Part shown: piece after piece, positions 5,871 through 63,323 of the stretch
Layout of the letters: each line of letters starts with the position of its first letter
Numbering within the stretch: position 1 is the first letter of the stretch
IMG/VR virus record: IMGVR_UViG_3300032280_000753
Coordinates: 1 to 64,000 of that record
Origin: a virus
Taxonomy: Duplodnaviria > Caudoviricetes
Length of the DNA: 64,000 bases
Strand: one strand, 5' to 3'
Made by a program: the position numbers and the translations under genes
Notes under the pieces: model-generated
Databases searched by the model: none
What the model was told of the DNA's origin: nothing
The model's input: the letters and a program-made list of their open reading frames with translations, nothing else

Positions 5871-6521
5871 TCATAAATTAATTAATTGGTTTTCTACAAT
5901 TGTTTTACCCAAATAACGACCAAAATCATGATCAGAACGATAGTGAACGCCAATAATAATTCTGGATATTCCTATATTTTTACCCAGTTTAAGCAATCCA
6001 TCCTTATGTTCTGGATATTTCTTTGAAAGTAACTCTCCCAATATGTAACCTTCAAATGAGTGTCCACTTGGATATGATGGAGTTAATGCATTGTAGGCTT
6101 CTACTGGGACATATAAGTCTAATCCATAATAACTTGCAAGTTGATACGGTCTTGGACGATTATAATGTTCTTTTAAACGAATTAATAAAGGCTCCAACTC
6201 ATTTAGAACTTCATTTAAATCATCCTTTTTTAAATCGTCAACACCATGACGATTTAAATATTCAATAAATAAACCAATATGGTCTTTTTCTGCTTTTTTG
6301 CAAAACTCAAGCGTTATATCAGATAAATTCTCAATTTTATCTACAAGCTTTAAAAGTTCCCTTTTTGTTTGATTAGAAGAGTTTGAAGGAGGTGGTAGTT
6401 CAAATAAATGATCGTAAAGGTCTAATTTAATTAACTTCTCACTAACTTCATCATGTTGCAAAGTCTTTTCCTTATATTTTAAGGAAAGATTACCATATGT
6501 AACTTTATCGATAAAGCTCAT
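5871..6521 (-). CDS. PAP2/vanadium-haloperoxidase-like phosphatase
   Basis: KEHYNRPRP, PSYPSGHS and SRIIIGVHYRSD motifs. Confidence 0.88.
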   Translation of the reverse strand: MSFIDKVTYGNLSLKYKEKTLQHDEVSEKLIKLDLYDHLFELPPPSNSSNQTKRELLKLVDKIENLSDITLEFCKKAEKDHIGLFIEYLNRHGVDDLKKDDLNEVLNELEPLLIRLKEHYNRPRPYQLASYYGLDLYVPVEAYNALTPSYPSGHSFEGYILGELLSKKYPEHKDGLLKLGKNIGISRIIIGVHYRSDHDFGRYLGKTIVENQLINL

Positions 6522-7384
6522 AACCACCGCTTGTTTTCATTAAGCTGATACAAATCATCTTTTGATATTTTTTTATACTTACGGCAGAAGATCTTTACGA
6601 TATTACCGGCTAAAGTATAAGCCTCGTTCTCGTATACCGTGTCTATGTCTCCCATCTCATTCATAGGATCAACATTCTCTAAATGCTTATCAAGTAATCC
6701 TGTCTCGTCTTGTCTACGATGGGTTAACTCATGAGCAATCGTTCTTAAAACATCTACTATAAGACGCTTACCAACCAAGATATGCATTGTATTGTTACTA
6801 CGATTATACATACCGGTTGTCATTTCCGGCTTCTTAATCATATGAAGATGCATCGTTGGCATATCTTCAATCTTTAATATGCGATTACAAAACTTAATAA
6901 AGTCTATTATTGTTTCGTATGATTTCGGATTTAACTCCTTATCACAAACAATCTTAAGCTTCTTCTTTGTAACTGGAATATGATTTTCTTCTAAAGCCTT
7001 ATATGTAGCTTTTGGTAATGACCCAGGTGTTGAAGAACCGCTCCACATTACAGCTACATTAATATTTTTACTATTTGTATTTTTATGATGCTGTGGTCCT
7101 TTAAGATTTTTTCCTTCTGGATCACTCGGATCATCACTATCAATATCTTCTTCTTCAGAACCTAATCCTTCAGAATATCCAATGGTTGAACCATAAGAAT
7201 TGATTTCTTCTAAACTCTTCTTTTTTCTTTTTCCGGCAGGCTTAAATTTGCCAGAAAGAGGAGCGGTAAAGCCTGCTATAGCACCGGTTGAAGCCATACC
7301 TCCTCCACCGGTGCTAATTGCAACTTGTTCTTCTAACTCATCTTCTAAAAGATATTCTAAAAGCTTTTTTAAATCTTCATGCAT
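6518..7384 (-). CDS. zincin-like metallopeptidase domain protein with N-terminal leader, probably head-associated
   Basis: IAHELTH (HExxH) plus downstream ENEA; N-terminus MHEDLKKLLEYLLE. Confidence 0.7.
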   Translation of the reverse strand: MHEDLKKLLEYLLEDELEEQVAISTGGGGMASTGAIAGFTAPLSGKFKPAGKRKKKSLEEINSYGSTIGYSEGLGSEEEDIDSDDPSDPEGKNLKGPQHHKNTNSKNINVAVMWSGSSTPGSLPKATYKALEENHIPVTKKKLKIVCDKELNPKSYETIIDFIKFCNRILKIEDMPTMHLHMIKKPEMTTGMYNRSNNTMHILVGKRLIVDVLRTIAHELTHRRQDETGLLDKHLENVDPMNEMGDIDTVYENEAYTLAGNIVKIFCRKYKKISKDDLYQLNENKRWL

Positions 7385-7405
7385 ATCTTTTAAATATTGA
7401 GCTAA

Positions 7406-8092: not shown

Positions 8093-8096
8093 GTTA

Positions 8097-9806: not shown

Positions 9807-9823
9807 ATATTATTTCTCTTCAA

Positions 9824-10804: not shown

Positions 10805-10810
10805 ATTACC

Positions 10811-13426: not shown

Positions 13427-13948
13427 ATGAAGATTACAGTAACGCAATTAAAGAATTTAATCCGTGAACAAGTAGAAGAAATGGCAATGAGTGAAGGCGT
13501 ATCTTTAGATCTAGAAAACTTGAATACTAGATCGAAAGATGCTGAAAAAAAAGTTCAGGCAACTGGAAATGAAAAAATGATTAATGATTGGAATGAATTA
13601 AAAAATTATATAGGTGTATGGGCTAAGACCGTTCAAAAAGAAGGCGGTAACGTTGATGGCAATAGAATTGGGTCATTTGTTCAAAAAGTTTTTCCAAATA
13701 AAATGATAGCTCCACTTTGGAATAGAGTTGTAAGCGATATTTTAACTGGCGACGTGGCGATGGTAGGGCTCGGCAAGGCAAGCACTCAACTTGATCAATC
13801 CATTATAAATGATCTAATGGAAGCATATGATAAACTTCCCAAAGAAAGTGGTGGAATGATGGGAAAGGTCAAAGGTTTCTTTGGCATGAAAGAAATGCGT
13901 CAAATGGTTAAAGAAGAAGTAGCACGTCAACTTCGCAATAAACGCTGA
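13427..13948 (+). CDS. hypothetical protein with MKITxxQLKxLIRE leader, probably head-packaged
   Basis: SD GAGAGGA and TACTTA upstream; the leader motif recurs at the C-terminus (EMRQMVKEEV). Confidence 0.7.
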   Translation: MKITVTQLKNLIREQVEEMAMSEGVSLDLENLNTRSKDAEKKVQATGNEKMINDWNELKNYIGVWAKTVQKEGGNVDGNRIGSFVQKVFPNKMIAPLWNRVVSDILTGDVAMVGLGKASTQLDQSIINDLMEAYDKLPKESGGMMGKVKGFFGMKEMRQMVKEEVARQLRNKR

Positions 13949-14028: not shown

Positions 14029-14577
14029 TCACTTGCCAGACGAACCGAAACCAGCAGAACCTCTATTGGTTTCAGTTACCTTATCACTCTCAGCCATTAC
14101 TACCTCTCCAGCAGTAGACACCTTGTAAACTACCAATTGTGCAATACGATCTCCAACGCTAAATACAGCGTCTTCTGAACCCATATTAACAAGGGTAACG
14201 CCTATCTCACCACGATAGTTTGGATCTATAATGCCACCAACAGGGAATACTCCCTTGCTGGCTAATCCACTACGTCCCTCAATCTTCATAAAAATACGAT
14301 TACGATCATTATCCATTATAGGCATATCTGCAAGTTGAATACCAGTTGCCATCTTTTTTACAGTTCCGGCTGGAATGGTAACATTCTCCGAACAATAAAC
14401 ATCAAATCCAATGTCTCCATCTCTTACAGCATGAGGCACTTTAGCATTATCATTCATGCGCTTAAATTTGATATTGATTGTTCTGGAAACCTTTGGTATT
14501 TGTGGATCATACCAGTTTTTATCAACGGTTCTATATGAACTCTGTGCTATGCTATCACTTATATTGTTATTACTCAT
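14029..14577 (-). CDS. dut: trimeric dUTPase
   Basis: GFDV, GRSGLA, GIIDPNYRGEIGV, GDRIAQL, RGSAGFGSSG; SD AGGAG before ATG 14577. Confidence 0.95.
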   Translation of the reverse strand: MSNNNISDSIAQSSYRTVDKNWYDPQIPKVSRTINIKFKRMNDNAKVPHAVRDGDIGFDVYCSENVTIPAGTVKKMATGIQLADMPIMDNDRNRIFMKIEGRSGLASKGVFPVGGIIDPNYRGEIGVTLVNMGSEDAVFSVGDRIAQLVVYKVSTAGEVVMAESDKVTETNRGSAGFGSSGK

Positions 14578-14598
14578 ACGATATTTCTCCTGTAGAAA

Positions 14599-14656
14599 GA
14601 ACAAAGGCGACAACCTTGTAACTCTATCTCTAAAGTTTAGATTACCGCCTTTGTTT
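14599..14656 (-). promoter_or_regulatory. long stem-loop between recA and dut
   Basis: 15-bp outer stem ACAAAGGCGGUAAUC/GGUUGUCGCCUUUGU (with GU pairs) and inner stem AACUUUA-GAGA-UAGAGUU. Confidence 0.55.
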
Positions 14657-14682
14657 TGGGTGTTATGTGTTAGGTGTTTTTA

Positions 14683-15906
14683 TCAGGCGCTTAACTCGTC
14701 AGCGGTTCTTACGTCGCCCTCGGATATCCCCTCATACGTGAGATGATCTTCTGGTTTGTCATTACCGCTAAGGATGAGTGCAGCATCCATCAAAGCATTA
14801 ACATACTCTGAGTATTCTGGCTTGTTCAGAACCTTCTGGGCAAACTCATTTTTATAGAATTTAACTTCTGTTCCTACTTCACCAGTTCTATTGTCAGTTA
14901 CGGTAAAGGTCTTCCAAGCCCCATCACCGGCAATAGCTACGGACTTATCTCCGACGCTAACGCCATTCTTTGCATTTTTACAATGTTCACGAAGAAGATC
15001 AAAAATCTCTTCTTCTTCAAAGATACCACGTCCAAACAAGATGCGGAAACCAACCTTACGGAAAGGCTTTGCTACCTTGTTTTTAATGGTCTTTGCCGTT
15101 ACGTTAATACCAACAACGTTTTCATCTTTATCTTTAATTGCAGAGCCGCCATCAAGACGAATTCTAACAGATGAAGAATATGGTATTGCCATACCACCAG
15201 ATGTAGTCGTTGGATCACCAAACATTACACCGATCTTCAATCTCTGCTGTGATACCAGCACCAATAAGACCTTCTGACCACCGATAACGTTGGCAATCTT
15301 TCGCATACCCTTTGATAGAACACGTGCTTGAAGACCAATCGTGTTCTGATCATAGTCGCCCTCTAACTCAGCCTTTGGAGAAGATTGAGAGACGCTATCC
15401 CACATAACGGTTACGGGAACGTCTTTTGTCATCGTGCGGGCTTTGAGAATTGTGCTCTCTATTACGGAGAGGATCTCTTCTGTGCAGGCAGACTGCACAA
15501 ATACAAATCTTCTTGCTACGTCAACACCCATATTAGCAAGAGTATCTGGATTTGTTGCATTCTCCGTATCGATATAAACCGCAATGCCACCCATTCTTTG
15601 GGTAGAACGTGCTATTTGAGCCATTAGGGTTGACTTACCGATACCGGGCGGACCTTGTATTTCTACAATCCTACCCTCTGGCATTCCACCACCACGACGA
15701 TTACCTATGATATAGTCTAACTGACGTGAGCCGGTAGAAATCCAGCGATGAACGTATGTTGGTGCATCATCTACACCGAGGTTAAAAGCAATCTTATCGT
15801 TATGTTCTTTATTGATTGCTTTAATAAGATCAGATGAAAAATCATCTGTTACTGCATCTTGAACTGTTTGCTGTGTATCTCCTGATTTCTTTGTAGGTTT
15901 TGCCAT
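14683..15906 (-). CDS. recA: RecA/UvsX recombinase
   Basis: GRIVEIQGPPGIGKST, YIDTENA, WDSV, IGLQARVLSKGMRK, IGVMFGDPTTTSGG, KNKVAKPF. Confidence 0.95.
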   Translation of the reverse strand: MAKPTKKSGDTQQTVQDAVTDDFSSDLIKAINKEHNDKIAFNLGVDDAPTYVHRWISTGSRQLDYIIGNRRGGGMPEGRIVEIQGPPGIGKSTLMAQIARSTQRMGGIAVYIDTENATNPDTLANMGVDVARRFVFVQSACTEEILSVIESTILKARTMTKDVPVTVMWDSVSQSSPKAELEGDYDQNTIGLQARVLSKGMRKIANVIGGQKVLLVLVSQQRLKIGVMFGDPTTTSGGMAIPYSSSVRIRLDGGSAIKDKDENVVGINVTAKTIKNKVAKPFRKVGFRILFGRGIFEEEEIFDLLREHCKNAKNGVSVGDKSVAIAGDGAWKTFTVTDNRTGEVGTEVKFYKNEFAQKVLNKPEYSEYVNALMDAALILSGNDKPEDHLTYEGISEGDVRTADELSA

Positions 15907-15926
15907 TTGTTTCCTTCTTTCCAATC

Positions 15927-15955
15927 ATCATATACCAACCGCATCTAAACGTAAA
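15927..15955 (-). promoter_or_regulatory. sigma70-like promoter for recA
   Basis: TTTACG-17nt-TATGAT. Confidence 0.55.
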
Positions 15956-15983
15956 CTGAAATCAGATGAAAAAAATATAAGTT

Positions 15984-16014
15984 AAACGCCGCTCAAGTTT
16001 CCTTGGCGGCGCTT
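15984..16014. repeat. CGCCGC/GCGGCG hairpin repeat copy 2
   Basis: aagttaaacgccgctcaagtttccttggcggcg, downstream of ssb. Confidence 0.7.
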
Positions 16015-16053
16015 CTCTTTCTATCCCTCAATACCGAGGGGACGTTTCAAGCG

Positions 16054-16878
16054 TCATAGGTCCGAAAAGGCATCATCAATTGACTTCTTAGCCTTCTTTG
16101 CCTTTGCTTCCGTGACGGACTTATCCTTTGCTTCTTCTACTTCTTCGGAGGAAACCTCTGATGAAGAACCATTACCTGCAAGGAAGTTTTGAAGCATCGC
16201 ATTAAGCTCGTCCTCGCTCTTTGTCTGTGCCTTGAAATAAGCTTCAAGGTTTGGAATAGCGGCAACGATCTTCTCGGATACATCGGCGCTCTTTGCGAGA
16301 GGTGAAGGCTTACGGCGTGGCTGAAGCTTGATATCCTTAACTGGATTACCAGCAAAGGTCTTATCAGTAGGAGATACAGTTACGGTGAAATCATAACCGG
16401 TTTCTGGATCCATAAGGTTTTCATCCTTATAGTCAGGGTGAGCAAGGACGCTGTAAATATCCTTTACAAGCTTGCTGTTTAGTTCCCAGAGCTGAACACC
16501 CTTGTCCTCTTCACCACGAACGAGGATTGGAGCATAGTAACGCTCCTTTGGCTGAAGATTGCGCCAGAGGGTCCAGGCTTCCTTTGACTTATCCTTCTTT
16601 AGATCGGTAAGGAGATTAAAGACAGGATCTGTGGTGCCTTCAAACTGACAACCGGCTACGAACCTACGTTCAGAAAGAAGGCGGCTATCATAATAGCTTA
16701 CCTCATGGAAGGGCTGACCATTACGATCCTGATATGGGAGGAAGCGAATATCATGCTGACCAAGCTGCGGCTTCCACCAGTTTACTTTGGTCTTTTCTGT
16801 GTTCTTTGAACCGGCTGATGCACGATTACCAGAAAGTTGATTGATCTTTGCCTTAATGGCGTCGAGGTTGTAACTCAT
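16054..16878 (-). CDS. single-stranded DNA-binding protein (T4 gp32-like)
   Basis: WWKP...IRFLP, RYYAPILVRG, DPETGYDF, acidic C-terminal tail ending DDAFSDL. Confidence 0.85.
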   Translation of the reverse strand: MSYNLDAIKAKINQLSGNRASAGSKNTEKTKVNWWKPQLGQHDIRFLPYQDRNGQPFHEVSYYDSRLLSERRFVAGCQFEGTTDPVFNLLTDLKKDKSKEAWTLWRNLQPKERYYAPILVRGEEDKGVQLWELNSKLVKDIYSVLAHPDYKDENLMDPETGYDFTVTVSPTDKTFAGNPVKDIKLQPRRKPSPLAKSADVSEKIVAAIPNLEAYFKAQTKSEDELNAMLQNFLAGNGSSSEVSSEEVEEAKDKSVTEAKAKKAKKSIDDAFSDL

Positions 16879-16979
16879 TTATTCACCTATGTTGCCCAAT
16901 GGGACTTTAATGATACAGAGGAAGGATATAAGCCATAAAATCCACCAATGGATACAAGAGCTTATAAGAACCTCTGTAT
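16879..16979 (-). promoter_or_regulatory. structured 5' leader of the ssb gene
   Basis: Three nested stems (atacagagg/cctctgtat, tataagc/gcttata, atcca/tggat) plus a small CCCAUUGGG hairpin before the SD. Confidence 0.6.
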
Positions 16980-16983
16980 GTTA

Positions 16984-17012
16984 ATTATAATCTAATTCCC
17001 GCTTTTTGTATC
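16984..17012 (-). promoter_or_regulatory. sigma70-like promoter for ssb
   Basis: GATACA-17nt-TATAAT. Confidence 0.55.
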
Positions 17013-17074
17013 TCTAACTTCATTTAATCTACATCATAGGAAAATATATATAAACCGTTATTCAATATAAAGTT

Positions 17075-17107
17075 AAACGCCGCTCCGAAATCAATCAGGG
17101 CGGCGTT
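17075..17107. repeat. CGCCGC/GCGGCG hairpin repeat copy 3
   Basis: aagttaaacgccgctccgaaatcaatcagggcggcgtt. Confidence 0.72.
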
Positions 17108-17130
17108 ATCATTTTTATATGACAAATACC

Positions 17131-18297
17131 TTATGTTCTGTTCCGAACTTTAGCTTGAGCCAATCTGCCTAATTTTGCAGCATTTACCCTGCCGTATTTG
17201 GACTGTTGTTCTACATGAAGTCCTGGCTCAAGCCCTACAGAAATAAATTCTTTAATGTCCTCGGAATGTGTTAAGGAATTTGGAGCGTATCCATCCCACT
17301 TGTTCCTATGAAACACATTTAAAGAATAAATAATATTTTTTATTGCTCCAGGCAAAGTGTCCATCTTATATGCACGTGCCTTTTTTCTTAATATTGCAAG
17401 AATATCTTCTGAAAGAGACACAATCGCTGGTTCTATGTCTTTCTTTTCCGCTATACCAGGACTTTCATTTCTTTCTCGTATACCAAGAGCCGCAGCACCT
17501 TTATATATTTTAGAATTTTTATTTATTAACTGTTGTTGCAACTCACTAACCGTATTAGAGATTATGTTGCTTATATTTTTCTTTTCTTGTTCAGAGTTTT
17601 GCTGTTCTTCGTCTGTGTATATGTCAGATGTGCTATGAACAATAGCACGATCAAACTTAACTGGTCCGATAGCTATAACTTCGTTTTCATCATCATAGTT
17701 TGTTATGGACTGAACGTAAGAATTTGTTATTTTGTCTGGGTTTAAAAAGAACTTGTTAGATGGGTCTTCCGTGTTCGCAACAAGTATAATGCTTAGATAT
17801 TGAGCCCCATCTTCAGGTGGAACTGCAAACAATGATGCAGCATCAGCAGAGGCGGACCAAGAACTTAAAGGTTTGCCTTGTTTGTAAAACTTTATCTTCT
17901 GAGGCGTTAAAACGCCGCTTTTATTGATAACCTTATATTCATCAGCTTTGATGGCAAATTCTTCTAAACCTAAGAAACTCTTAAGTTGATCAACAGTTAA
18001 TCTCATGCCTCTATATACATCACCAGAAGGCGGCTGCAACTCTGGATATTTTCCAGAGTTAACAATTGGAATTAACTGAGATAGATCATTAGCAAAACTA
18101 TTCAAACTACCGGCTGTCAAATGGCTATTGAACCATTTTTCAAGTTTGTTTACAAACTTTTGTTCCTCCGGAGTGTTCTTCTCCGGAGGATTACTTATTG
18201 GGCGCTTTTTATCCGGATCATTAAAAGATTTGCCGAATATTTCTGTATCTGCTTCTAATAAATACCCTAATAGATTTTTCAAATTTTCTTTTGACAT
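17131..18297 (-). CDS. putative ADP-ribosyltransferase (R-S-ExE type, Alt-like) with N-terminal leader
   Basis: VYRGM, LSSWS and DENEVI in the canonical order; N-terminus MSKENLKNLLGYLLE. Confidence 0.65.
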   Translation of the reverse strand: MSKENLKNLLGYLLEADTEIFGKSFNDPDKKRPISNPPEKNTPEEQKFVNKLEKWFNSHLTAGSLNSFANDLSQLIPIVNSGKYPELQPPSGDVYRGMRLTVDQLKSFLGLEEFAIKADEYKVINKSGVLTPQKIKFYKQGKPLSSWSASADAASLFAVPPEDGAQYLSIILVANTEDPSNKFFLNPDKITNSYVQSITNYDDENEVIAIGPVKFDRAIVHSTSDIYTDEEQQNSEQEKKNISNIISNTVSELQQQLINKNSKIYKGAAALGIRERNESPGIAEKKDIEPAIVSLSEDILAILRKKARAYKMDTLPGAIKNIIYSLNVFHRNKWDGYAPNSLTHSEDIKEFISVGLEPGLHVEQQSKYGRVNAAKLGRLAQAKVRNRT

Positions 18298-18314
18298 ATC
18301 CTTAAATATGTCAA
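18291..18314 (-). promoter_or_regulatory. hairpin covering SD and ATG of the putative ART, with a TATTTA motif
   Basis: ttgacatat-ccttaa-atatgtcaa; minus strand reads TATTTA-aggat-ATG. Confidence 0.62.
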
Positions 18315-18326
18315 CAAACCTTCAAA

Positions 18327-34222: not shown

Positions 34223-34234
34223 TTGGAGCTTAAA

Positions 34235-50396: not shown

Positions 50397-50782
50397 AATT
50401 CAATTTTAGATCCGGATGCAATTCCATTACTCTCACACCAACCCGCCTTTAATTCTAAAACATAACGACACGGAAGCTTGATCTTACAAGTTCTCTCGTC
50501 ATTAGCTAACAGTCTATGAATTCCCAATACACGACCTCCATCACTTAAAGGCACAAGATCCAAATCAAAAGGAACGTTCCGCATCCAAAAACCTAATTCT
50601 TTTGGCTCGGGATAAACGAAAAAAAGCCCAAAGCCATCATCCGGCTCGGGCTCAAACATAAATCCTTTTTCCTGCTCTTCTGGAGTTGTTAACATACGTA
50701 GTCTTAAAGGAATTCCTCCTAACGTGGCTTCACAGTTGGATCGTTGTTTCCATATGGAAAATATATCTCGCATTGTTTGCAT
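50393..50782 (-). CDS. DUF192 family protein
   Basis: EQEKGFMF...GLFFVY...FWMRNVPFDLD...YVLELKAG. Confidence 0.8.
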   Translation of the reverse strand: MQTMRDIFSIWKQRSNCEATLGGIPLRLRMLTTPEEQEKGFMFEPEPDDGFGLFFVYPEPKELGFWMRNVPFDLDLVPLSDGGRVLGIHRLLANDERTCKIKLPCRYVLELKAGWCESNGIASGSKIEF

Positions 50783-51636: not shown

Positions 51637-51642
51637 ATTATC

Positions 51643-51692: not shown

Positions 51693-52913
51693 TTAAGGAG
51701 TTATATCGCAAGGATCACGAATAATGTCCCTTAAGGCTTCTGCCATTGCAATTGGATCACTCGTTAACTCAAACTCTATTCCACATTCATTATATGTTCT
51801 TGCAACTACAGGATCTACAACATATGCAAATACTTCCCCATGAGTTAATGCAGAACACATATCAGTTTCCGTTATTCTTGGCTCTCTATAACTTTGCCCA
51901 GCTTCATCAGTAAACAATATAATAATCCTTACTGCATTCTCTCTCCATCCAATACGTAATTCATCATCCATCCCTAACATATATACCGCATCATATGAAG
52001 GTTCACTTCCTCCTCCAATACCAAGAAAGCTTGAATTCAATATTGGATTAAATATAGAAAAAGGAACAAGACGAGTAACTACACTAACTTGTCCGTCTAT
52101 GGAACCCGGCACCAATACAAGTCCAAATCGGAATGATGTATCTCCACTAAACGTGCTTGTAAAGGCGTCTGTAGCCCTTTTAACGGCTGCTATTCTTAAT
52201 GCCATACTACCAGACGTATCTATCGCATAAACAACGTCAAAGCCCTCTGAGGGAAATGGAACGCAACCCGTAGAACTTAACACGCCGTCAACACAACCAT
52301 CACAATCATTATCTATGTCGTCACAAGCGTATGTCCCACTCTCTATACGAGGAGGAATAGAACCTATGCATTCATCCCAATAGCCTTCATAACATACTTG
52401 AACACCACGCTCACATGGAGGATTTAATACTTCTGTCGCACCTAAATCTCTATCGTAACACCAACGAGATACTGGACCACGACTATCTCCATCAATCGTT
52501 CCATCACAATCATTATCAAGATTATCACAAACTTCTGGAACACATTCTATACGAGTGCAATGTCCTATAATGCATCCATATCCAGAACTCGGATATCCAC
52601 ATTGATCATCAAACTCACATACCGCACCAGTAACATCGGTTGGTCTACAAACTCCAAAACGACACTCTTCCGTGTTGTAATCACACGCAGGACTATTACC
52701 ACAATTACATTCGTTTAAATTACAACGATCAGTTATAGTAAATGGACAAACGTGGTCGCACCCGCCGCAATTGTTAATGTCGTTATCAATTCCACCATCC
52801 TCACTACATATCGTGCCAGCATCGGGAACATATGTTCCAGCATCCAATACGTCAGTTGTTCTATCGGTACAACCAACAAACAAAACCGCTAAAAATATTA
52901 AAACCTGTCTCAT
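51693..52913 (-). CDS. Cys-rich VWA-domain lipoprotein
   Basis: Lipobox FVGC, DAG repeats, DINNCGGCDHVC, EVCDNLDNDCDG and CDDIDNDCDG repeats, MIDAS DTSGS, IILFTDE. Confidence 0.85.
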   Translation of the reverse strand: MRQVLIFLAVLFVGCTDRTTDVLDAGTYVPDAGTICSEDGGIDNDINNCGGCDHVCPFTITDRCNLNECNCGNSPACDYNTEECRFGVCRPTDVTGAVCEFDDQCGYPSSGYGCIIGHCTRIECVPEVCDNLDNDCDGTIDGDSRGPVSRWCYDRDLGATEVLNPPCERGVQVCYEGYWDECIGSIPPRIESGTYACDDIDNDCDGCVDGVLSSTGCVPFPSEGFDVVYAIDTSGSMALRIAAVKRATDAFTSTFSGDTSFRFGLVLVPGSIDGQVSVVTRLVPFSIFNPILNSSFLGIGGGSEPSYDAVYMLGMDDELRIGWRENAVRIIILFTDEAGQSYREPRITETDMCSALTHGEVFAYVVDPVVARTYNECGIEFELTSDPIAMAEALRDIIRDPCDITP

Positions 52914-54139: not shown

Positions 54140-56050
54140 TCAGATAAGATTTAGATCGAGAACTGTAACGGTTCCGTAGAAGTCGTTACGAACCATTCTC
54201 TTGCCGTATCTCGTCATTACGCCCTTACGTGGGGTGAAGTCGTCTTGAGCGTAAATGACTGGCGTGAGGATTAGTGGAACGTATGGTGCGTATATATAAC
54301 CGCTCTCAAGGAACGTATTACCCTTAAGACCAACAAGGATCTTGTTAGCTGGGAAGTATGGATCCTTATAGACTGTGTAACGGTTATTAAGCGTACCAAC
54401 GGCTTCTGCGCCTACGGTCATGCTGTCACGTACTTGACCATCGGAGTCAAGACGGTAAGCTGGCTTGTAGGATACAAGATGCTCAAGGATCGTGCAAACG
54501 TCTGGTGACGTGACAAGGAAGTTTGCAGAACCACGAAGCGTCTTCTTGTAGATCGTGTTAGCAACGTCAGATACTGTCTCGATAAGGGTTTGATACCATT
54601 CTTGAATATTGACGAATGCCATTGGACCTGGGGATAGATTGGAGCTTTGAAGAGCCTCTGCACCCGTGAGCTTATTGACGATCTTGCCTGGAGCTCTGGA
54701 CCAGTAAAGGTTTGCTGCGCCAGCTTGTGTAAGAAGGTCGTTAAGGATTTCACGGTCGATCTCAAGCGTGATCATTTCGGAGAGGATGTTCGTAAGTTCT
54801 ACTTCGATATCGATTGAGTAGAAAGCCGTAAGGTCTTGTGCCATTTCTGGTGACCAACGTGCTCTGAGCTTACGGGTCGTTGCAGTTACTGAGGTTGATT
54901 CGATGCGGATATCAACTTCTGGGATTACTGGAGAAGCTGGGTTAACTCCGAAATCAGACTCGAAGGATGGGATCGTAAGAGTTGCGCCAGTTCCAGCGGA
55001 CGTGTCAAGTTTGTCAGCAAGAGCTGCGGATCCGGAAATTACGTCCGCTGCTGCTGGACCGAGCGTTGGGACGACGCCGCCGTTGCCAAGACGTAGTACG
55101 AATAGTACGTGGGAGCCGTTTAGTGGATCTGGCGTGAATACTTTGTCATTCCAGTTACCACGACGATTAAGCTTACGAAGATTAAGTACGCCGGAACCAC
55201 CTTGATATTGCTCGCCCCAGGCAACTTGGGTACCTGGATTGCCGAAGCCGGTGAGCGTAATTTGTTCAAGTGAATCTAGATCAGCACCCGTGATATTGGA
55301 CGTAATTACTGACGTGCTCATAAATAGGAAGCAGTAATCAAGTACGCCGTCAGTAAGGTCATTTTCAACCTTGCCATCGTAGTTGACATAACGAGCGTTG
55401 AAACCAACGAACTCTGCTGCTGTTGCTACGGTATCTGCTGGCGTCCACGTTGTTCCTGCTGCGCCCCATGCACCGATTGCAAAGTTTGAAGAAGATAGAG
55501 CGACAGAGCTCTTGTGGACTTTGGAGTAACCAGCGCCGACGAGATCATACATACCGCCAGTTGCAAGGGATCCGGAACGGACACCTGCGCCACGTGGGTT
55601 ATTGTATACTGAGGTACCATCAGCGTAAGTTGATGGGGTTCCGCCGCCTAGGTTTACGCCTGCGTTGCCACCGACGTTGTTACCATAGGTGTAATCGAGG
55701 TAGAAGAGTAGACCGGCTGGAAGGCTCATTGGCTGAACGGATACGATCTCGTTAGCGATAAGACCAGCGAATACTCTACGAACGATTGGGAATGCAACGT
55801 TGGTGAAACCAACTACTTGACCAGAGGAAGCAAGACCTGCGCCGCCGGTAGAAAGTGAGTTTGCGGTTTCCTTAAGAAGCTCTGCTGCTTGGTTTTCAAG
55901 AAGACGAGCCATATTGTCTTTATTGACGCCCTTAAGTCCTTCAAGAAGACCCGTGGCTTGCCACTTCTTTTGAAGTCTTGGAGCATCGGCTCCAAGTGAA
56001 CGGCGATGAACGCCTTCTGCTAATTGTGATAATGTGAACGAAGATTTCAT
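54140..56050 (-). CDS. major capsid protein (T4 gp23-like)
   Basis: LLENQ, FPIVRRVF, VSVQPM, TRKLRARWSPEMAQDL, EIDREI, GYIYAPYVPL, FTPRKGVMTRY. Confidence 0.95.
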   Translation of the reverse strand: MKSSFTLSQLAEGVHRRSLGADAPRLQKKWQATGLLEGLKGVNKDNMARLLENQAAELLKETANSLSTGGAGLASSGQVVGFTNVAFPIVRRVFAGLIANEIVSVQPMSLPAGLLFYLDYTYGNNVGGNAGVNLGGGTPSTYADGTSVYNNPRGAGVRSGSLATGGMYDLVGAGYSKVHKSSVALSSSNFAIGAWGAAGTTWTPADTVATAAEFVGFNARYVNYDGKVENDLTDGVLDYCFLFMSTSVITSNITGADLDSLEQITLTGFGNPGTQVAWGEQYQGGSGVLNLRKLNRRGNWNDKVFTPDPLNGSHVLFVLRLGNGGVVPTLGPAAADVISGSAALADKLDTSAGTGATLTIPSFESDFGVNPASPVIPEVDIRIESTSVTATTRKLRARWSPEMAQDLTAFYSIDIEVELTNILSEMITLEIDREILNDLLTQAGAANLYWSRAPGKIVNKLTGAEALQSSNLSPGPMAFVNIQEWYQTLIETVSDVANTIYKKTLRGSANFLVTSPDVCTILEHLVSYKPAYRLDSDGQVRDSMTVGAEAVGTLNNRYTVYKDPYFPANKILVGLKGNTFLESGYIYAPYVPLILTPVIYAQDDFTPRKGVMTRYGKRMVRNDFYGTVTVLDLNLI

Positions 56051-56089: not shown

Positions 56090-58183
56090 TCAATCATTAT
56101 TTCTCTTGATGTTAGCTAGGATCTGCCATTTCTCAAACGTTCCGATTACTGGTTCAGAACCATTCGAAGATGCAGCTCTGGTTACGCCTTCATTAAGACG
56201 TGCGCTGCCAGCAGTCGTTGGCTTTGATGCCGAACCAACTACAGGAGCAGTGTGCGCTGCTGCTGCTTCATCAAGCTTTCTTACAATCTTTCCGTAGATA
56301 TCTTTAGCTTCTGCGATTGTTGAAGCACGATCAAGATGTTCTACGATTTGTTGCTTAACCTTACGGCTAAGGTCTTCTCTCACGAGGAACTTGTTTAGAT
56401 AAACAAGCTTGGAGAGGAAAAGGTTTGTTTCTGCCATTTCCTTTTTAAGTGTGGCAGTTTCTGCACGCTTTGCTTCTGCAAGGCGGCGTGACTTAACTTC
56501 ACGTGTGCGGGACTCGAGAAGAGCTTTGCGAACACGACGAGATTCCATCATTGGTGAATGTGGTTTCATTGCCATTTCATCCATCTCTTCTTCGCCACCC
56601 TCTTCATCGGTAAGAAGCATTTCTTCTTCTTCAGAGCCCATGCCTTCATCACCGGCTGCTGACATATCAAGGTCAACTACTTCTTCGTCGTCGCCCATGT
56701 CTTCGTCGCCCATGTCTTCTTCTTCTTCGCCGGAGAACATAAGATCAACTTCAAGATCTTCATCTGCGAGTTGTTCTTCAACTTCATCTGGAAGTTCAAC
56801 AGAAAGAACAAGATCCTCATCCATGCCACCTGGAGCTGCTGCTCCCATCATTTCAAGAAGCTTTTTACGTGCAGCTTCTTTGATTGCGGACTTGGAGGTT
56901 GTCTTCTTAGCAGCGGCTTCCTTACGGATCTTAGCAACTGCTTCTTTAAGAGCTGCTTCGCTGATTTCGAAGTAACCGGAATCGGAAACAGCGGCTGGAA
57001 CTTCGCCAGCTTCTGGTTCTTCGTGGGCATCAAGTTCATCACGGAGAGCTGCTTCTACTTCTTCAAGTAGAGCTTGTTCCCATGGACCTTCTTCTCCATC
57101 AAGACCTTCAAGTTCGTCAGCATCTACTGAGCCTGCTGCTGCGAGCTTTTCTGTGGTCTTTGAACCGCCGCCAAAAAGATCAGCGTGAACGCCAGACGCT
57201 TTCATGGCATGAGCAGTTGCTGCTTTATGTACTGCTACACCGGTTTCACCGGAGCTTTTGCTGTCTTGTGCAAGACGTTCGTTGTCTGCACCTTCGAAAA
57301 GTTTTGCTGCGAATTCTTTAAGAGTTGTCATAGTTGTATCCTTGTCCTTTTGCTTGTTATAACTATTGTTCAAATTTGCTTCTTTCAAGTGTAAGAACAA
57401 AAATTCTAATCTATTTTCGTTCAATTGTGCTTGTTTAGGTGAAATAACCTTGTTCGCAGCAAGACTATCAAGCTGCTCTAATAATGAAAAAAGCTTAGTT
57501 TTGTAGGCATCTTCTGTAAGAGCCGTAACTTTTGTTGTATACATACGGTCAATCTTAACTGCCATTTCAGCAAGTTGACGTTCAAATTGTTTTATTGTTT
57601 TTGCTTCTGCAATTGGTGCTGCTGGTGCAACTTCTTCTTCAGCGGCTGCTCCTGCGGTTTCTGGGGCTGGCGTTGGACCAGCAGTAGCTGGAGCAGCAGC
57701 GGCAGCTTCTGGAGCTGGCATTTCTGCTGGTGGTGTTTCTACTGGGGCGCTCGAGGCTGGCATTTCTGGTGCAGCCTCAATTGCTGGTGTAGTAGTTGCA
57801 ACTTCCATGGATGAAGCCTGCGACATATCAGTTGGATTAACAATGTCGCTACCTTCAGAAGCAAACAAATCATCGAAGCTTAAAGTAATTTTTCCATCTG
57901 TGCCACTTGGCATTGGAACATTAACAACATCAGAACCACCGGCAGGAGTTATAGGCATTTCAGATGGTGCCATAGCATCAGGCATTGCCATTGCTGCATC
58001 AGGTGCAGGAGCTTCTGGTGTCATATCTTCTTGTTCTAATAAGAAAGAGTTTGAAGCTTCCTTAGCAATCATTTGTTTGATATATGGATTAATTCTTTCA
58101 AGAATAGCACTACGAGCATCTTGCTCTGCTATCTCACGAATTTTTGCTGCATCAGCTAATGCTTCTTTATATAAATCACTCAT
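56090..58183 (-). CDS. prohead core scaffold protein (gp22-like)
   Basis: LYKEALADAAKIREIA...; very acidic; ETNLFLSKLVYLNK; ends WQILANI; directly upstream of the capsid gene. Confidence 0.78.
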   Translation of the reverse strand: MSDLYKEALADAAKIREIAEQDARSAILERINPYIKQMIAKEASNSFLLEQEDMTPEAPAPDAAMAMPDAMAPSEMPITPAGGSDVVNVPMPSGTDGKITLSFDDLFASEGSDIVNPTDMSQASSMEVATTTPAIEAAPEMPASSAPVETPPAEMPAPEAAAAAPATAGPTPAPETAGAAAEEEVAPAAPIAEAKTIKQFERQLAEMAVKIDRMYTTKVTALTEDAYKTKLFSLLEQLDSLAANKVISPKQAQLNENRLEFLFLHLKEANLNNSYNKQKDKDTTMTTLKEFAAKLFEGADNERLAQDSKSSGETGVAVHKAATAHAMKASGVHADLFGGGSKTTEKLAAAGSVDADELEGLDGEEGPWEQALLEEVEAALRDELDAHEEPEAGEVPAAVSDSGYFEISEAALKEAVAKIRKEAAAKKTTSKSAIKEAARKKLLEMMGAAAPGGMDEDLVLSVELPDEVEEQLADEDLEVDLMFSGEEEEDMGDEDMGDDEEVVDLDMSAAGDEGMGSEEEEMLLTDEEGGEEEMDEMAMKPHSPMMESRRVRKALLESRTREVKSRRLAEAKRAETATLKKEMAETNLFLSKLVYLNKFLVREDLSRKVKQQIVEHLDRASTIAEAKDIYGKIVRKLDEAAAAHTAPVVGSASKPTTAGSARLNEGVTRAASSNGSEPVIGTFEKWQILANIKRNND

Positions 58184-58765: not shown

Positions 58766-59317
58766 TCATTTTCCGAACGCTAATTTAGCCCAATGACCAA
58801 TATCTCCGGATGGTGCAATAGCTTGTAATTGCTCCGGAGCGATCTTTTCTTGAGCACCTTGCATACCAGCAGCAGCCATGGCACCATAACCACCATTTCT
58901 GGAAGGATCTTGTGCCATTTGTTGTGGAAGAGTATGCATAGCGGTATCAGCTAATATTGCAGCATATGCATTAGCCATTTTATTATCGCCTTTACTCATT
59001 TGATTTGATGCTGCTTCAACCAATTTTTGCATATTTTGGTTCATTGGAGCAGAAGAGATTTGCATATCTGAATTTTCAGAAGAACCAAAACCCATATCAT
59101 CATAGCCTGCAATACGTGCGGCGGCGGCTCTGGTTCTGGCAGCATCAACAGGAGATTTTTGATTAATCATATCACGTGAAGCAACTCTATTTGTAGAAGG
59201 AGCTGTTCTTGTTCCTTCAGACATTACAGCGCCTACTTCGTTGAATGCGCCTTCTTTAATAAGTTCACGAATACAATCTTTAATCATTCCTTTGAAGTCT
59301 GATTTTGTCATCTTCAT
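58766..59317 (-). CDS. hypothetical prohead-core-like protein
   Basis: Leader MKMTKSDFKGMIKDCIRELIKE; follows the protease gene; ends WAKLAF. Confidence 0.65.
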   Translation of the reverse strand: MKMTKSDFKGMIKDCIRELIKEGAFNEVGAVMSEGTRTAPSTNRVASRDMINQKSPVDAARTRAAAARIAGYDDMGFGSSENSDMQISSAPMNQNMQKLVEAASNQMSKGDNKMANAYAAILADTAMHTLPQQMAQDPSRNGGYGAMAAAGMQGAQEKIAPEQLQAIAPSGDIGHWAKLAFGK

Positions 59318-59919
59318 ACACGACCCTTTTTAATTCCAAGAATATCATTTGCAATGCGATCAAGACGATCACTCTTTGAGAATATCTTATTAAGAATGCG
59401 TGGATCTACTTCTTTTGCCTCACGCATCATGTAAGCACCTGGAGTAGAAGGTTCAGAAACTAAGTCCCAGCAGATAAGATGAAGGTCATCTTGAACGATA
59501 TCTGCATCGCCACGGCTTCTTACAGAACCAAGGGCACGAGATGAAATACCAACTTTAACATTACTTTCAATAAGATTACGAGCGATGTTACCCATTGGAG
59601 TTGGAAGGATTTCAATCTTTCCAAAGATAACTTCATCGTCTGCCCAAATATCTGTAATAAGATGGGAAACGTTTTTAAGATTAACAACTGGATCATCGGC
59701 ATGGTCTAACTCACCCATTGCACGACGTTCCATAACAACCTTCTTATAATTTTCCATTTCTTTAAAAAGGATATCTTTTGGATAGATACGCCCATTTTGA
59801 TTAAGGGTGTCTGCACGTTGAATAACGCCTTTTACGAAGAGCTTACCTGGCTTGCCATCAGATGCATCTTCTTTAATAATTTCGTAGTTGAATTCTTTAA
59901 ATTCTTTTAGGAGTTTCAT
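59314..59919 (-). CDS. prohead protease (T4 gp21-like)
   Basis: NQNGRIYP, GELDH, VSH, GISSRALGS, WDLVSEPSTPGAY. Confidence 0.93.
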   Translation of the reverse strand: MKLLKEFKEFNYEIIKEDASDGKPGKLFVKGVIQRADTLNQNGRIYPKDILFKEMENYKKVVMERRAMGELDHADDPVVNLKNVSHLITDIWADDEVIFGKIEILPTPMGNIARNLIESNVKVGISSRALGSVRSRGDADIVQDDLHLICWDLVSEPSTPGAYMMREAKEVDPRILNKIFSKSDRLDRIANDILGIKKGRV

Positions 59920-60779
59920 GATTTATTCTCCATCTCTTCCTTTAGCTTTGCAATTGACATATAGAATGTAATTGTTTCATCGGTTATGTTGGTTAAATCG
60001 CTACCCTCGAGTAAAGAAACAACTTCTCCTAATTTGCTCTTGATACCTTTATCTAAACCTTCAGTCATAACTGGGGACTTAAGAGCCTTTAAAGTGCGAA
60101 CTTTTATATTCTCAAGTAATGAAACCAACACTTCTTTATTTTCTTTGCTGTTGTGACTTAGCATATAAAGATTAACGATTTCTTTTTGAGCTTCATTTAA
60201 TAGCCCGTTATATTTGGCATTAAATTTCTCTGTCATAAGTTTAACAACAAGACTATTGACTTCTGAAGTGGTTACGTCTGATGCATCAAGTTCTGGTTTA
60301 GCCTTTGGAGACAATATATGTTCAAGTATCATTTCTTCAAGTTGAGCCATTTCAGAGATGGAACCTTTAAATCCAGTTCCTCTCCATGCATTCATTAATA
60401 CTTGAACAGAAGCAAATGATTTATATTCTGGAACTGCACGATCAAAGAAACTTTTATCTCCAAGAACAGAACTTACTTCATTAATAAGAGAAGCTTTTTC
60501 TTCATCAAGTTTAAGTTGAGATTGTTTTCTGCAAACGACTTTTGCTTTTTCTAACATTGAAAAAGCAATGTCTTTAGATTTAAGACTGCTCTCATGCAAT
60601 GCATTGAATATTTGCAATTCCGTGTATGTTGCGGATTTTGGATGAACATGTTTTTCCCAAAGCTGACGAGCCTTAGTAATGTCATCGTGTCGTTCATCAA
60701 TAAATGCTTCTGCAATATAACGTGAAAAGAATTCACTAATCAAACCAATGTTACGTTTTTTGTTATGTTTAAATTCCAT
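59916..60779 (-). CDS. conserved head-module hypothetical protein
   Basis: KHNKKRNIGLISE...KFNAKY..L; lies between portal and protease. Confidence 0.7.
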   Translation of the reverse strand: MEFKHNKKRNIGLISEFFSRYIAEAFIDERHDDITKARQLWEKHVHPKSATYTELQIFNALHESSLKSKDIAFSMLEKAKVVCRKQSQLKLDEEKASLINEVSSVLGDKSFFDRAVPEYKSFASVQVLMNAWRGTGFKGSISEMAQLEEMILEHILSPKAKPELDASDVTTSEVNSLVVKLMTEKFNAKYNGLLNEAQKEIVNLYMLSHNSKENKEVLVSLLENIKVRTLKALKSPVMTEGLDKGIKSKLGEVVSLLEGSDLTNITDETITFYMSIAKLKEEMENKS

Positions 60780-60851
60780 CTCAAATTACCCATTCTCTTA
60801 TAGGTCAATTCCTGATATAAATAGGGAAGAACTATAGTAAAAATTAAATGA

Positions 60852-62969
60852 TTATAGATTGCTTAAATCTAAATCGTCGTTTTCTTCCTCTTTTTTATCT
60901 TTGTTTGCATTTTCAATCAAGATATCGTCGCCTACCATATCCATCTCAAATAAACGATCATCATTCAAATCATCAAGTCTAACTTCATTTTCTGTGAGAA
61001 TTTTCTTATTTCTTCTTGCACCGGTATTTGCAAAATGATCATCGAGCTTATTCATTAGATTTTTCATATCACGTGATACAACCGGTGGTGGCTTGTAATC
61101 AAGTTCAAAATCTTCGGTTTTTGTTTCTTCAGAAAGAGAGAATTGGCTTTTAAGATTGAGAGCTCCTTTGTCATTAATATCTGTAAGATACTTGTTATTA
61201 CCAGACAACATATCTTTAAAGTCTGGCATTGATAGATTTCCTTTTCCAGCCATTCCTACACGTCTACGGTCATTGTGTTTAGCTGCCGAAAGAAATGGGG
61301 TTGCTTTAATTGGAAGCCCTACAGACGCCTCTGGAGAAGCCGATGGTTGTCCTGCTACAGAAACACCGCTCGTAGCTACAGCCTGCATATCATTGGTTAC
61401 ATTAACCGGATGCATATTGGTATTGGCATTACCGGCTATTGGTTCTCCAAGAGGAGCATTCTTCTTAACATTTGATCCTGGCATCACATAGTTGCTTGGG
61501 TCAAATGGATCCGTAGTTGTATTTTTCTCTGGGAGATTTTCTTTAACAGCAATTGCTTCAATCTCAACTTCACGGATTTTATCTCTACGAACGCCGGCTT
61601 CAATCCTAATAATATCGTCATCAGTAAGATCAAGGATTTTCTTTTGGATCCAGTCTTGATCAACAAGCTTGGTTTCTTTTGCTTTACCAGCAATATCAAA
61701 CTTTGTAGACATTGCTTCCAGCTTTTGCTGCATTGCAACTGTAGATGGATTGCTCAATCTTAGTTCAAAGGCAATGAGATCCTCGCCATCAAATCCTTTC
61801 GTATAAAGATGAACCATTGCCATCTTATTCAATTCGCTGAGAATAACTCTCTGCAATACTGATATGGTTCTGGAGAAGCGAACGTCCTGCTGGGCAAGAG
61901 ATGCCTTGGCAGAAAGGTTTTCATCAAAGTTCAAATATGGCTTTGGAACTTGAATAGCTGCAAAGAGTTTCTGTTGAAGATATTTTACGTCATCAACTGC
62001 TGTAGCGTTTTGACCACCAGCAAGAGTTTCGATTTTTGTTCCAGTTTGACCACCACGGACAGGAATGAAATAATCTTCATCAATGCTTAATGGATTGAAA
62101 CGTTGATCCATTCTACCATCTTGACGATTAACAACATCTTTAGAACGCATGGTTTGCTTAACAGCTTCCATGAAGCTTGGAACGTCATTAGGAGCTACGT
62201 TACCAACGTCAATATAGAATACACGACGTTCTGGGGAACGAACAACACGATAGACTAACATACTGTCTTCCATCATAACAAGTTGTCGCCAAACCCTTCT
62301 GGCAGGCTCCAAGATAGAAGTTCCATAGGGTAAGAATAGATCGTTACCCAAAATTCTCATATGGGTTATTTGCCAGTTCTCTAAATAACGATTACCTCTC
62401 GTTATCCATTTATAACGAACCGCATATGGATCACGCTGATCAAATCCTTCTTCTCTTTCAAGTTCATTTACAGGGATTGGCTGGACGTTAACGATACCAA
62501 TATCTGGGATTACTTCGTTATAAAGAAAGAAATCTCCATATTTGACCAAGTTACGGATCCAGGGACGGAGATTAAAGTCTATATTAAGAATATCATAGAA
62601 TAGCTCTTCAAGTGCTTTCTTGACTTCTGGGTTCTTAGAATATAAATGGAAAGCTTTTCCCTTTTCATCACCGGCCGCAGTTTCATCGGCAAAGATATTT
62701 AATGCTGCGGCGATCTCTGGCTGATATTCCATTTCAGCAAATTCAGAGTAGCGAGCCATGCGGTCAAGTATACCGTAGGCTCCGAGAACAGAGAATGGAG
62801 AGCTTTCACGACCAAACGGAAATGGACCACGATAACCTAAGTTACCACGGACTAATTGATTGTCATAATAGCTTTTATAGTCATATCCTTTGACACGACG
62901 TTGGATTGCGGGTCCAGACCTGAATAATTTGGTTAGTCTGGTGAAAAATGGATCATTTCGATTGGCCAA
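60852..62969 (-). CDS. portal protein (T4 gp20-like)
   Basis: EIAAALNIFADE, MEDSMLVYRVVRSPERRVFYIDVGN, EDYFIPVRGG, IETLAGG, DVRFSRTI. Confidence 0.95.
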   Translation of the reverse strand: MANRNDPFFTRLTKLFRSGPAIQRRVKGYDYKSYYDNQLVRGNLGYRGPFPFGRESSPFSVLGAYGILDRMARYSEFAEMEYQPEIAAALNIFADETAAGDEKGKAFHLYSKNPEVKKALEELFYDILNIDFNLRPWIRNLVKYGDFFLYNEVIPDIGIVNVQPIPVNELEREEGFDQRDPYAVRYKWITRGNRYLENWQITHMRILGNDLFLPYGTSILEPARRVWRQLVMMEDSMLVYRVVRSPERRVFYIDVGNVAPNDVPSFMEAVKQTMRSKDVVNRQDGRMDQRFNPLSIDEDYFIPVRGGQTGTKIETLAGGQNATAVDDVKYLQQKLFAAIQVPKPYLNFDENLSAKASLAQQDVRFSRTISVLQRVILSELNKMAMVHLYTKGFDGEDLIAFELRLSNPSTVAMQQKLEAMSTKFDIAGKAKETKLVDQDWIQKKILDLTDDDIIRIEAGVRRDKIREVEIEAIAVKENLPEKNTTTDPFDPSNYVMPGSNVKKNAPLGEPIAGNANTNMHPVNVTNDMQAVATSGVSVAGQPSASPEASVGLPIKATPFLSAAKHNDRRRVGMAGKGNLSMPDFKDMLSGNNKYLTDINDKGALNLKSQFSLSEETKTEDFELDYKPPPVVSRDMKNLMNKLDDHFANTGARRNKKILTENEVRLDDLNDDRLFEMDMVGDDILIENANKDKKEEENDDLDLSNL

Positions 62970-63002
62970 TGTAATTTACCTCTTCGTGATTGTAATTATT
63001 GA

Positions 63003-63323
63003 GTGAAAACGTATGGAGTGTCCAAAGTGAATAAAAAGTCAAATTTAGAAAAGTTACTTCTTGAGCTTTTAAATACTGATGAACAGTTGAAAACCCCAGA
63101 TGCTGGAAAAGACATACAGACAACAGAAGAAGAGTCTAAAGGTCCAAGCATAGTATTACAACCTCCTAAAGAAGAAACAGAACACCAAATGTCGGATGAA
63201 GAGATGGCATCCTATTTAGAAGGAGGAAATATTGACACTTCTTCACAAGGAGTTGCAACTGGATTAGAAGAAGTGAATATAGGACTTAATGAAATCGAAA
63301 ACACATATTCGATAAAGATGTGA
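63003..63323 (+). CDS. acidic hypothetical protein
   Basis: NLEKLLLELL resembles the shared leader; exact start uncertain. Confidence 0.55.
   Translation: MKTYGVSKVNKKSNLEKLLLELLNTDEQLKTPDAGKDIQTTEEESKGPSIVLQPPKEETEHQMSDEEMASYLEGGNIDTSSQGVATGLEEVNIGLNEIENTYSIKM

Follow-up and report, generated by a model that had tools for sequence, protein, structure and literature searches.

In phage T4, the capsid targeting sequence (CTS) is the textbook route by which phage proteins are smuggled into the host ahead of gene expression, and it is also used as a biotechnology tool. To our knowledge, what has been learned of the CTS comes from essentially a single phage group and from a few proteins. A comparable element is described here in 64,000 nucleotides of DNA from a virus of the Caudoviricetes (positions 1 to 64,000 of IMG/VR record IMGVR_UViG_3300032280_000753; hereafter the window, meaning this whole stretch). 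Nine genes in the window encode otherwise dissimilar proteins that begin with a similar short leader peptide, referred to below as the tag. Sequence comparisons suggest that these leaders are probably a lineage-specific analogue of the T4 CTS.

In the account given by reviews of the original work, the T4 CTS is an N-terminal tag on IPI, IPII, IPIII and Alt (Mullaney and Black 1996, reviewed in PMC9026906, PMC3012670, PMC5694885). By cleavage after Glu, the T4 protease gp21 breaks up the core proteins and trims propeptides (PMC5694885, PMC9026906), and reviews have already suggested that the CTS lets T4-like phages load varied proteins (PMC9026906, PMC3012670). The leaders in the window resemble this system in several ways: they are short (10–22 residue) N-terminal peptides on unrelated proteins, ending in (L/I)xE; they are accompanied by a gp21-family protease and a head module of the gp20/gp22/gp23 type; the tag persists from one related phage to the next, but the proteins behind it are hypervariable; and T4 Alt, an ADP-ribosyltransferase (ART), has a counterpart among the tagged proteins, although here it is ART-like only. 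When read from NC_000866, the T4 tags share the logic of the window tag, but not its sequence. Unlike the T4 CTS, the tag of the window's clade is longer, tolerates far less variation and exists in three flavours. It is carried by 9 to more than 30 genes per genome, compared to about 4–5 in T4, and it also occurs internally in a polyprotein-like arrangement and at a C-terminus, forms known here from sequence alone. The concept is therefore that of the T4 CTS; what is new is the tag sequence, its strict conservation, its three flavours, its polyprotein and C-terminal forms, and its scale. A literature search found no paper containing these tag strings.

Further likenesses are offered by phages phiKZ, 201phi2-1 and SPN3US, in which inner-body or ejection proteins carry propeptides (PMC5694885, PMC7411985). 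These giant phages possess a gp21-related protease, which there cuts after Glu, together with many processed head proteins and multiple sites per propeptide; paralogues in these phages share identical N-termini. However, their propeptides are mostly over 100 residues long with the motif (A/S/G)xE, no single short tag is found on dozens of unrelated proteins, and the phages belong to a different lineage (chimalliviruses and relatives).

The initial annotation of the window had listed at least nine open reading frames (ORFs) with a similar leader, divided into classes A and B, and all nine are present where it placed them, with the leaders that it quoted. For genes on the minus strand the coordinate that it used is the low end of the gene, and the true start of the ORF at 34223 is the ATG at 34235. 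The count of nine applies to the 64-kb window. Scores in the following list are leave-one-out profile scores, described below.

7343–7384, minus strand: class A leader, residues 1–14 of gene 6518–7384 (288 amino acids, HExxH); score 18.0
13427–13468, plus strand: class B leader of the M-K-I-T flavour, residues 1–14 of gene 13427–13948 (173 amino acids, no recognisable family)
18253–18297, minus strand: class A leader, residues 1–15 of gene 17131–18297 (388 amino acids, ADP-ribosyltransferase-like)
34235–34273, plus strand: class A leader, residues 1–13 of gene 34235–34819 (194 amino acids, no recognisable family); score 17.3
39106–39147, minus strand: class B leader of the M-K-I-T flavour, residues 1–14 of gene 38404–39147 (247 amino acids, no recognisable family); score 15.7
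48427–48468, minus strand: class B leader of the L-K-E-Y-I flavour with a GTG start, residues 1–14 of gene 47389–48468 (359 amino acids, no recognisable family); score 14.6
49845–49892, plus strand: class B leader of the L-K-x-Y-I flavour, residues 1–16 of gene 49845–50396 (183 amino acids, HAD/polynucleotide-kinase-phosphatase-like)
59252–59317, minus strand: leader, residues 1–22 of gene 58766–59317 (183 amino acids, no recognisable family), immediately after the protease gene
63033–63065, plus strand: class A-like leader, residues 11–21 of gene 63003–63323 (no recognisable family)

The leader is an amphipathic helix of 13–22 residues with the pattern hydrophobic-x-x-hydrophobic-(L/I)-x-E, followed by a flexible linker. 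Its three flavours are M-K-I-T-x-x-Q-L-K-x-L-I-[KR]-E, L-[KR]-x-Y-I-x-x-[LI]-[LI]-x-E and N-L-K-K-L-L-x-Y-L-L-E. The (L/I)xE ending, which had been ascribed to nearly all of the leaders, is in fact found in all nine; the Glu is invariant in 91 aligned tags, and the P3 residue is nearly always I or L.

Two statistical approaches support the similarity of the leaders. In the first, which presupposes no motif, the first 24 residues of the 61 called proteins were compared pairwise by their best ungapped 12-residue BLOSUM62 score. Eight N-terminal pairs reached a score of at least 30, whereas random internal segments yielded 0.9 such pairs on average and never more than 3. Each of the eight includes a claimed leader gene or the protease; the leaders of 13427 and 38404 score 45 against each other. 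In the second, a profile covering the Glu and the 10 residues before it was built from the window leaders. All nine leaders score 9.1–18.0 when each is left out in turn, and a score of at least 8 is attained at only 1 of 17,601 internal positions. A six-frame scan of the window gave no further strong N-terminal leader match; outside N-termini the profile picks out a single conserved C-terminal copy, described below. Once the first 30 residues are removed, the nine proteins show no mutual similarity.

These position-specific statistics oppose chance as the origin of the likeness, although the leaders are rich in K, E, L and I, as are many helical segments. A related suggestion is that no functional peptide is involved, and that composition or a nucleotide element at the 5′ ends of genes, acting in translation initiation or recombination, accounts for the shared leaders. 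Synonymous codons vary freely at the invariant residues, with the three Ile codons used 45, 38 and 23 times and all six Leu codons in use, and the DNA upstream of the tags contains only a Shine-Dalgarno (ribosome-binding) signal; together these indicate that selection acts on the peptide. Moreover, the tag is kept in homologues of the 17131 protein at only 42–54% identity, with residues L6, L13 and E15 invariant in 13 homologues. An abrupt break in DNA homology at the end of one leader, described next, would also fit a recombination hotspot, but an explanation that dispenses with a functional peptide is very hard to credit. The tag is real, specific to protein termini and selected as a peptide.

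The tag behaves as a module that can be exchanged between proteins. Two homologues of the ART-like protein bear the M-[KR]-I-T flavour rather than class A, no tag is present on distant homologues of the HExxH domain, and the orthologue of 49845–50396 in the relative G002 retains its leader. DNA homology between the window and five relatives (78–96% identity) ends at 63052–63071, at the 3′ end of the leader (63033–63065), and behind this leader a different protein is found in each phage. Of the nine tagged proteins of the window, 58766–59317 alone has an orthologue in the relative G007. As a separate observation on the 63003 gene, a single TGA (63324–63326) separates 63003–63323 from the next ORF in the same frame, which continues past the edge of the window; the relatives have a single ORF of 338–478 amino acids behind this leader, with a different sequence.

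Relatives of the window phage were scanned with the profile built from the window alone, counting N-terminal matches at a threshold of 10 and deriving the expected number from the rate of internal matches. In G007 (245 kb, capsid protein 73% identical to that of the window) 11 matches were found vs 1.5 expected, and in G012 (289 kb, 96% complete, capsid 57% identical) 33 vs 1.6. Flavobacterium phage immuto, which is in culture, has 5 matches vs 0.6 expected (capsid 41% identical), and G002 has 4 vs 0.2 (protease 86% identical). Tagged proteins of immuto are encoded at 81525–81944, 102294–102869, 102880–103359, 111184–111654, 113188–113946 and 123355–123576 of its record. Nearly all of the G007 leaders start M-K-I-T-x-x-Q-L-K, and the proteins behind this tag are mutually unrelated. 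The tagged genes of G012, 30–44 of 363 depending on the threshold, are arranged as M-K-I-T arrays plus an L-R-K-Y-I block that includes HD and Zeta-toxin-like kinase domains. With the same profile, no leader family was detected in G005 (a cyanophage-like T4 relative of 165 kb), T4, Microcystis phage Mel-JY01 or Rhodothermus phage RM378.

The tag is widespread beyond these genomes. In IMG/VR, a degenerate DNA pattern for the M-K-I-T flavour matches at least 120 stretches; the 80 loci among the pattern matches listed contain 109 ORFs, often in tandem, whose similarity is lost directly behind the tag. With a profile made from 91 tags, 8,090 of 1.84 billion cluster representatives are detected at E ≤0.001, and 113 at E ≤1e-10. 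A tblastn search of GenBank phages with the 25-residue tag gave one weak match, this type of search being too insensitive for so short a query.

The clade that carries the tag consists of T4-type phages, with contigs of 130–290 kb and one cultured genome of 160 kb; some genomes are estimated at about 400 kb. It probably infects Bacteroidota. Of the 25 tag-bearing contigs searched, 14 encode a Peptidase_S77 (S77) protease; among the 7 with a completeness of 70% or more, 6 do so. None was found in the control genomes. The capsid proteins found in tag-bearing contigs are 42–57% identical to that of the window, nearly always over their full length, whereas cyanophage-like T4 relatives match the window capsid in the C-terminal half only. 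This co-occurrence with S77 and one type of capsid indicates that the tag tracks one lineage of head module. In three cyanophage-like T4 relatives, proteins encoded just before the protease gene begin with T4-like tags of the form M-K-[TK]-F (L039 9243–9605, L015 8962–9558, L028 8728–9561). Tag flavour appears to differ from one T4 sub-lineage to another.

Profile searches identify the window phage as a distant T4 relative that encodes a head module of the T4 type, made up of the following genes.

54140–56050, minus strand: major capsid protein, gp23-like, 636 amino acids (PHROG 138, 5.6e-72)
56090–58183, minus strand: scaffold-like acidic protein, 697 amino acids, with 24 (L/I)xE sites, between the protease and capsid genes
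59314–59919, minus strand: prohead protease of the T4 gp21 family (Peptidase_S77), 201 amino acids (PF03420 4.8e-23; PHROG 207 1.4e-47)
59916–60779, minus strand: head-core protein conserved in the clade, 287 amino acids, encoded between the portal and protease genes, where T4 has genes 67/68
60852–62969, minus strand: portal, gp20-like, 705 amino acids (PHROG 213, 2.3e-70)

The sites expected of such a protease are concentrated in the proteins of this module. The scaffold, the capsid N-terminus and the portal tail had all been described as rich in LxE, and this holds for the first two; in the portal tail the enrichment reaches only marginal significance (P = 0.04). Within the window, (L/I)xE sites are densest in the core protein 59916–60779 (15 sites in 287 residues, P = 7e-6), with the scaffold next (24 in 697, P = 2e-5). 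Residues 1–65 of the capsid protein contain four sites (P = 0.01) and the remainder is not enriched; residues 1–62 are the presumed propeptide, and leader-like L-L-E and L-L-K-E sequences occur at residues 52 and 62. Enrichment in the core, the scaffold and the capsid N-terminus is to be expected if a T4-like cleavage specificity has been kept (PMC9026906, PMC5694885). The N-terminus of the protease is itself leader-like, ending in I-K-E at residue 17. The tagged gene 58766–59317 directly follows the protease gene, and at this place G007 has three tagged genes in a row. The tag could have been equally common in early replication proteins, but it is absent from all 11 proteins of replication or nucleotide metabolism identified in the window.

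A further connection to the capsid is provided by the HExxH protein 6518–7384. A second site, L-E-E at residue 19, follows its leader and is succeeded by a stretch that resembles the capsid N-arm; residues 3–40 align with residues 45–83 of the capsid protein (41% identity, E = 3e-4), a region comprising the presumed propeptide cleavage region and the start of the N-arm, and lying at most about 6 residues from the equivalent of the T4 Glu65 cut. Residues 20–45 of the same protein form a Ser/Thr-Gly-Gly-rich stretch resembling the start of the mature capsid N-arm. Members of the HExxH family as little as 46% identical still have this stretch, and it recurs in a 73-residue head-module protein of immuto (123355–123576).

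From these features a mechanism can be proposed. During prohead assembly, the helix would dock its cargo onto the scaffolding core, and the shell would then close around the core. The gp21-type S77 protease would cut behind the terminal Glu of the tag, often with a second site a few residues later; the placement and enrichment of the motif suggest that the same protease would chop the scaffold and core proteins and remove the capsid propeptide. By analogy with T4 IPI–III and Alt, the freed cargo would stay in the head and enter the host with the DNA. In T4, cutting is blocked when the Glu is changed to Asp. In the AlphaFold model of the 17131 protein (mean pLDDT 71.5), the tag forms a helix at residues 3–15, followed by a low-confidence linker at residues 15–37, and such a helix on a linker is a plausible shape for a detachable tag.

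The tag might instead be a propeptide that the protease removes, keeping enzymes inactive or marking them for destruction until head maturation, with neither retention in the head nor injection. Such a role would suit the protease motif at the end of the tag and the second site that often lies shortly behind it, and some of the cargo is potentially harmful, including the ART-like protein, a Zeta-toxin-like kinase, an HD hydrolase and the HExxH protein. However, it is unlikely that a helix of 14 residues, attached by a disordered linker, could inhibit many unrelated folds, and most of the cargo consists of small ORFans rather than enzymes. In the T4 precedent the S77 protease works inside the closed prohead (PMC5694885), so its substrate has to be inside as well. 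A role as a propeptide and nothing else is accordingly improbable.

Several observations nevertheless weigh against the leaders being an analogue of the CTS. Internal copies of the tag are present in 67 of the best 150 library matches. In those inspected, the tag Met is preceded by Glu, one or two variable residues and Lys; judged by this arrangement, the internal copies appear to be in-frame strings of tag-plus-module units, similar to a polyprotein. The tag also occurs at the end of a protein whose gene lies between those for the tail tube and the baseplate hub.

37433–37477, minus strand: C-terminal copy of the L-K-E-Y-I tag, at the end of ORF 37430–37789 (119 amino acids); profile score 19.3

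This copy ends one residue before the stop and cannot be a removable propeptide, which implies that in some cases at least the helix is a docking element that is never removed; it may be a general docking element that is not strictly an N-terminal address. The copy is kept in 25 of 25 homologues (57–97% identical). An origin of this C-terminal tag as a fossil gene was considered and rejected, since all 25 homologues retain it. The 30–44 tagged genes of G012 far exceed any characterised set of head cargo. One tag-bearing contig, estimated to be 81% complete, has no match to S77 or to the capsid. Identity with the T4 CTS sequence was likewise rejected, as the window profile does not rank T4 IPI–III, Alt or gp24 above background; the leaders are for this reason regarded as an analogue of the CTS and not as the same tag. 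Finally, the initial annotation had cited a TANTTA motif upstream of most leader genes, but it precedes 4 of 9 leader genes and 16 of 54 others (Fisher P = 0.45), and the upstream motifs TATTTA and ATATTTA are not enriched at leader genes either; a link to late promoters was therefore rejected as evidence. What stands of the proposed modular address is a modular tag, similar to the T4 CTS and tied to the prohead protease, shorn of the late-promoter argument and of sequence similarity to the CTS itself.

Some of these same observations would suit a helix that generally lets proteins dock to, or be recognised by, a different shared partner, for example a chaperone of the phage, an intracellular assembly or an enzyme that modifies them, the (L/I)xE being incidental to an amphipathic helix rich in K and E. 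The conserved C-terminal copy, where cleavage would take off one residue only, can be read in this way, as can the internal position of the motif in many proteins, the very large number of tagged genes per genome and a conservation far stricter than that of the T4 CTS. An incidental motif is harder to reconcile with the invariance of the terminal Glu and the near-constant I or L at P3, with the enrichment of the same motif in head-core proteins, or with the presence of tagged genes inside the head operon beside the protease. A modifying enzyme would find a single Thr as the sole conserved modifiable residue. Only S77 and one capsid type were found linked to the tag, no systematic search for another co-occurring enzyme having been made. 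A partner unconnected with the head is unlikely on this balance, and loading of the head in the manner of the CTS is retained as the probable function.

An A-T-A-T-T-T-A-like box was observed 5–8 nucleotides before the ATG, without a Shine-Dalgarno signal, at 559–957, 3273–3701, 6518–7384, 17131–18297 and 50393–50782. It is found at tagged and untagged genes alike, and may be a promoter for leaderless or near-leaderless mRNAs.

The tagged proteins themselves are mostly unfamiliar. Six of the nine in the window have no recognisable family in Pfam, PHROG or NCBIfam, and the ESM Atlas gives only unnamed viral clusters. Profiles from the same three collections find nothing for most of the cargo of the window, G007, immuto and G012, the exceptions in G012 being HD and Zeta-toxin/AAA_33 kinase domains; most cargo proteins are small ORFans. 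The description of 6518 as an HExxH protein is borne out by its family, in which H-E-L-[TVI]-H is conserved in 25 of 25 aligned members with a conserved E-N-E-A downstream; in Pfam it has only a sub-threshold match to DUF6055. The assignment of 49845 to the HAD family is supported by a DxDxT motif (D-L-D-D-T at residues 28–32) and by PHROG 415 (E = 2.7e-9), but the Pfam and NCBIfam HAD models remain below their cut-offs. The gene 38404–39147 sits between the tail sheath and tail tube genes.

The case for 17131 as an ADP-ribosyltransferase is a mixed one. Across 13 homologues, Y95-R96-G97, S145-S146-W147 and E204-x-E206 vary little or not at all, placing the catalytic Arg, the Ser-x-Ser-type motif and the Glu-x-Glu motif in the order of R-S-E ADP-ribosyltransferases. 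Its model is matched to Vis by Foldseek with a probability of 0.87 but E = 0.04. VIA-align finds more than a dozen ART chains over residues 38–226, with Z scores of only 4.2–5.9; the best is Vis (Z 5.9, rmsd 4.0, 133 residues), while pertussis, C3, SpvB, HopU1 and others have Z 4.2–5.6. No sequence match to an ART was found in Pfam, PHROG, NCBIfam or the PDB. With invariant motifs and modest fold matches on one side and no sequence-profile match on the other, the protein can be called ADP-ribosyltransferase-like with modest support, and is not proven to be one.

Elsewhere in the window, tail genes include a gp19-like tube and a baseplate hub, and a replication block encodes ribonucleotide reductase, a DnaB-like helicase, UvsX, SSB, dUTPase and thymidylate synthase. 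Two adjacent tail-sheath paralogues of about 1,000 amino acids each (39172–42156 and 42206–45283, minus strand) are 33% identical over their full length, and G007 retains both. A GIY-YIG/HNH-type homing endonuclease gene (35377–36168, minus strand) lies amid structural genes, with a related copy elsewhere in G007. The head genes vary greatly in size between relatives: the portal has 705 amino acids in the window, 1,513 in G002 (14121–18662) and 2,361 in G007 (139629–146714), and the protease ORF has 575 in G007 (136829–138556) vs 201 in the window. The extra length in G002 and G007 looks like large insertions, perhaps inteins. In the tag-bearing G015 (242 kb), two full-length capsid paralogues stand in tandem (139113–141017 and 141085–142962), each 55% identical to the capsid protein of the window.

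The nearest cultured phage is Flavobacterium phage vB_FspM_immuto, and the hosts of the window phage are probably Flavobacteria. Close relatives in IMG/VR are fragments with an estimated completeness of 14–57%, which points to a genome of roughly 400 kb. Two lipoproteins with a signal peptide ending in Cys are predicted in the window, at 5036–5812 and at 51693–52913 (minus strand); the first matches a PHROG ‘protease’ family, and the lipoprotein style of both is consistent with a host of the Bacteroidota type.

The tag is sharply defined and easily searched, and it is present in a cultured pair, Flavobacterium phage immuto on strain LMO8; a literature search found no virion proteomics for this phage. 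Thousands of unknown proteins from abundant aquatic phages carry it, which provides a catalogue of candidate injected effectors and anti-defence proteins. Tagged genes amount to about a tenth of the genes in one genome (G012), and tagged proteins to more than 8,000 clusters overall. It is possible, though this is offered tentatively, that a T4-type clade of Bacteroidota phages uses a peptide code of three flavours plus polyproteins to load a large and fast-changing payload into the head, delivering a ‘starter proteome’ of enzymes and anti-defence proteins, with the C-terminal copy and the capsid N-arm mimics marking distinct destinations in the head. If the leaders do act as an analogue of the CTS, the loading of head cargo can reach tens of proteins per virion, and a large block of the ORFans in freshwater and marine viromes would be explained.

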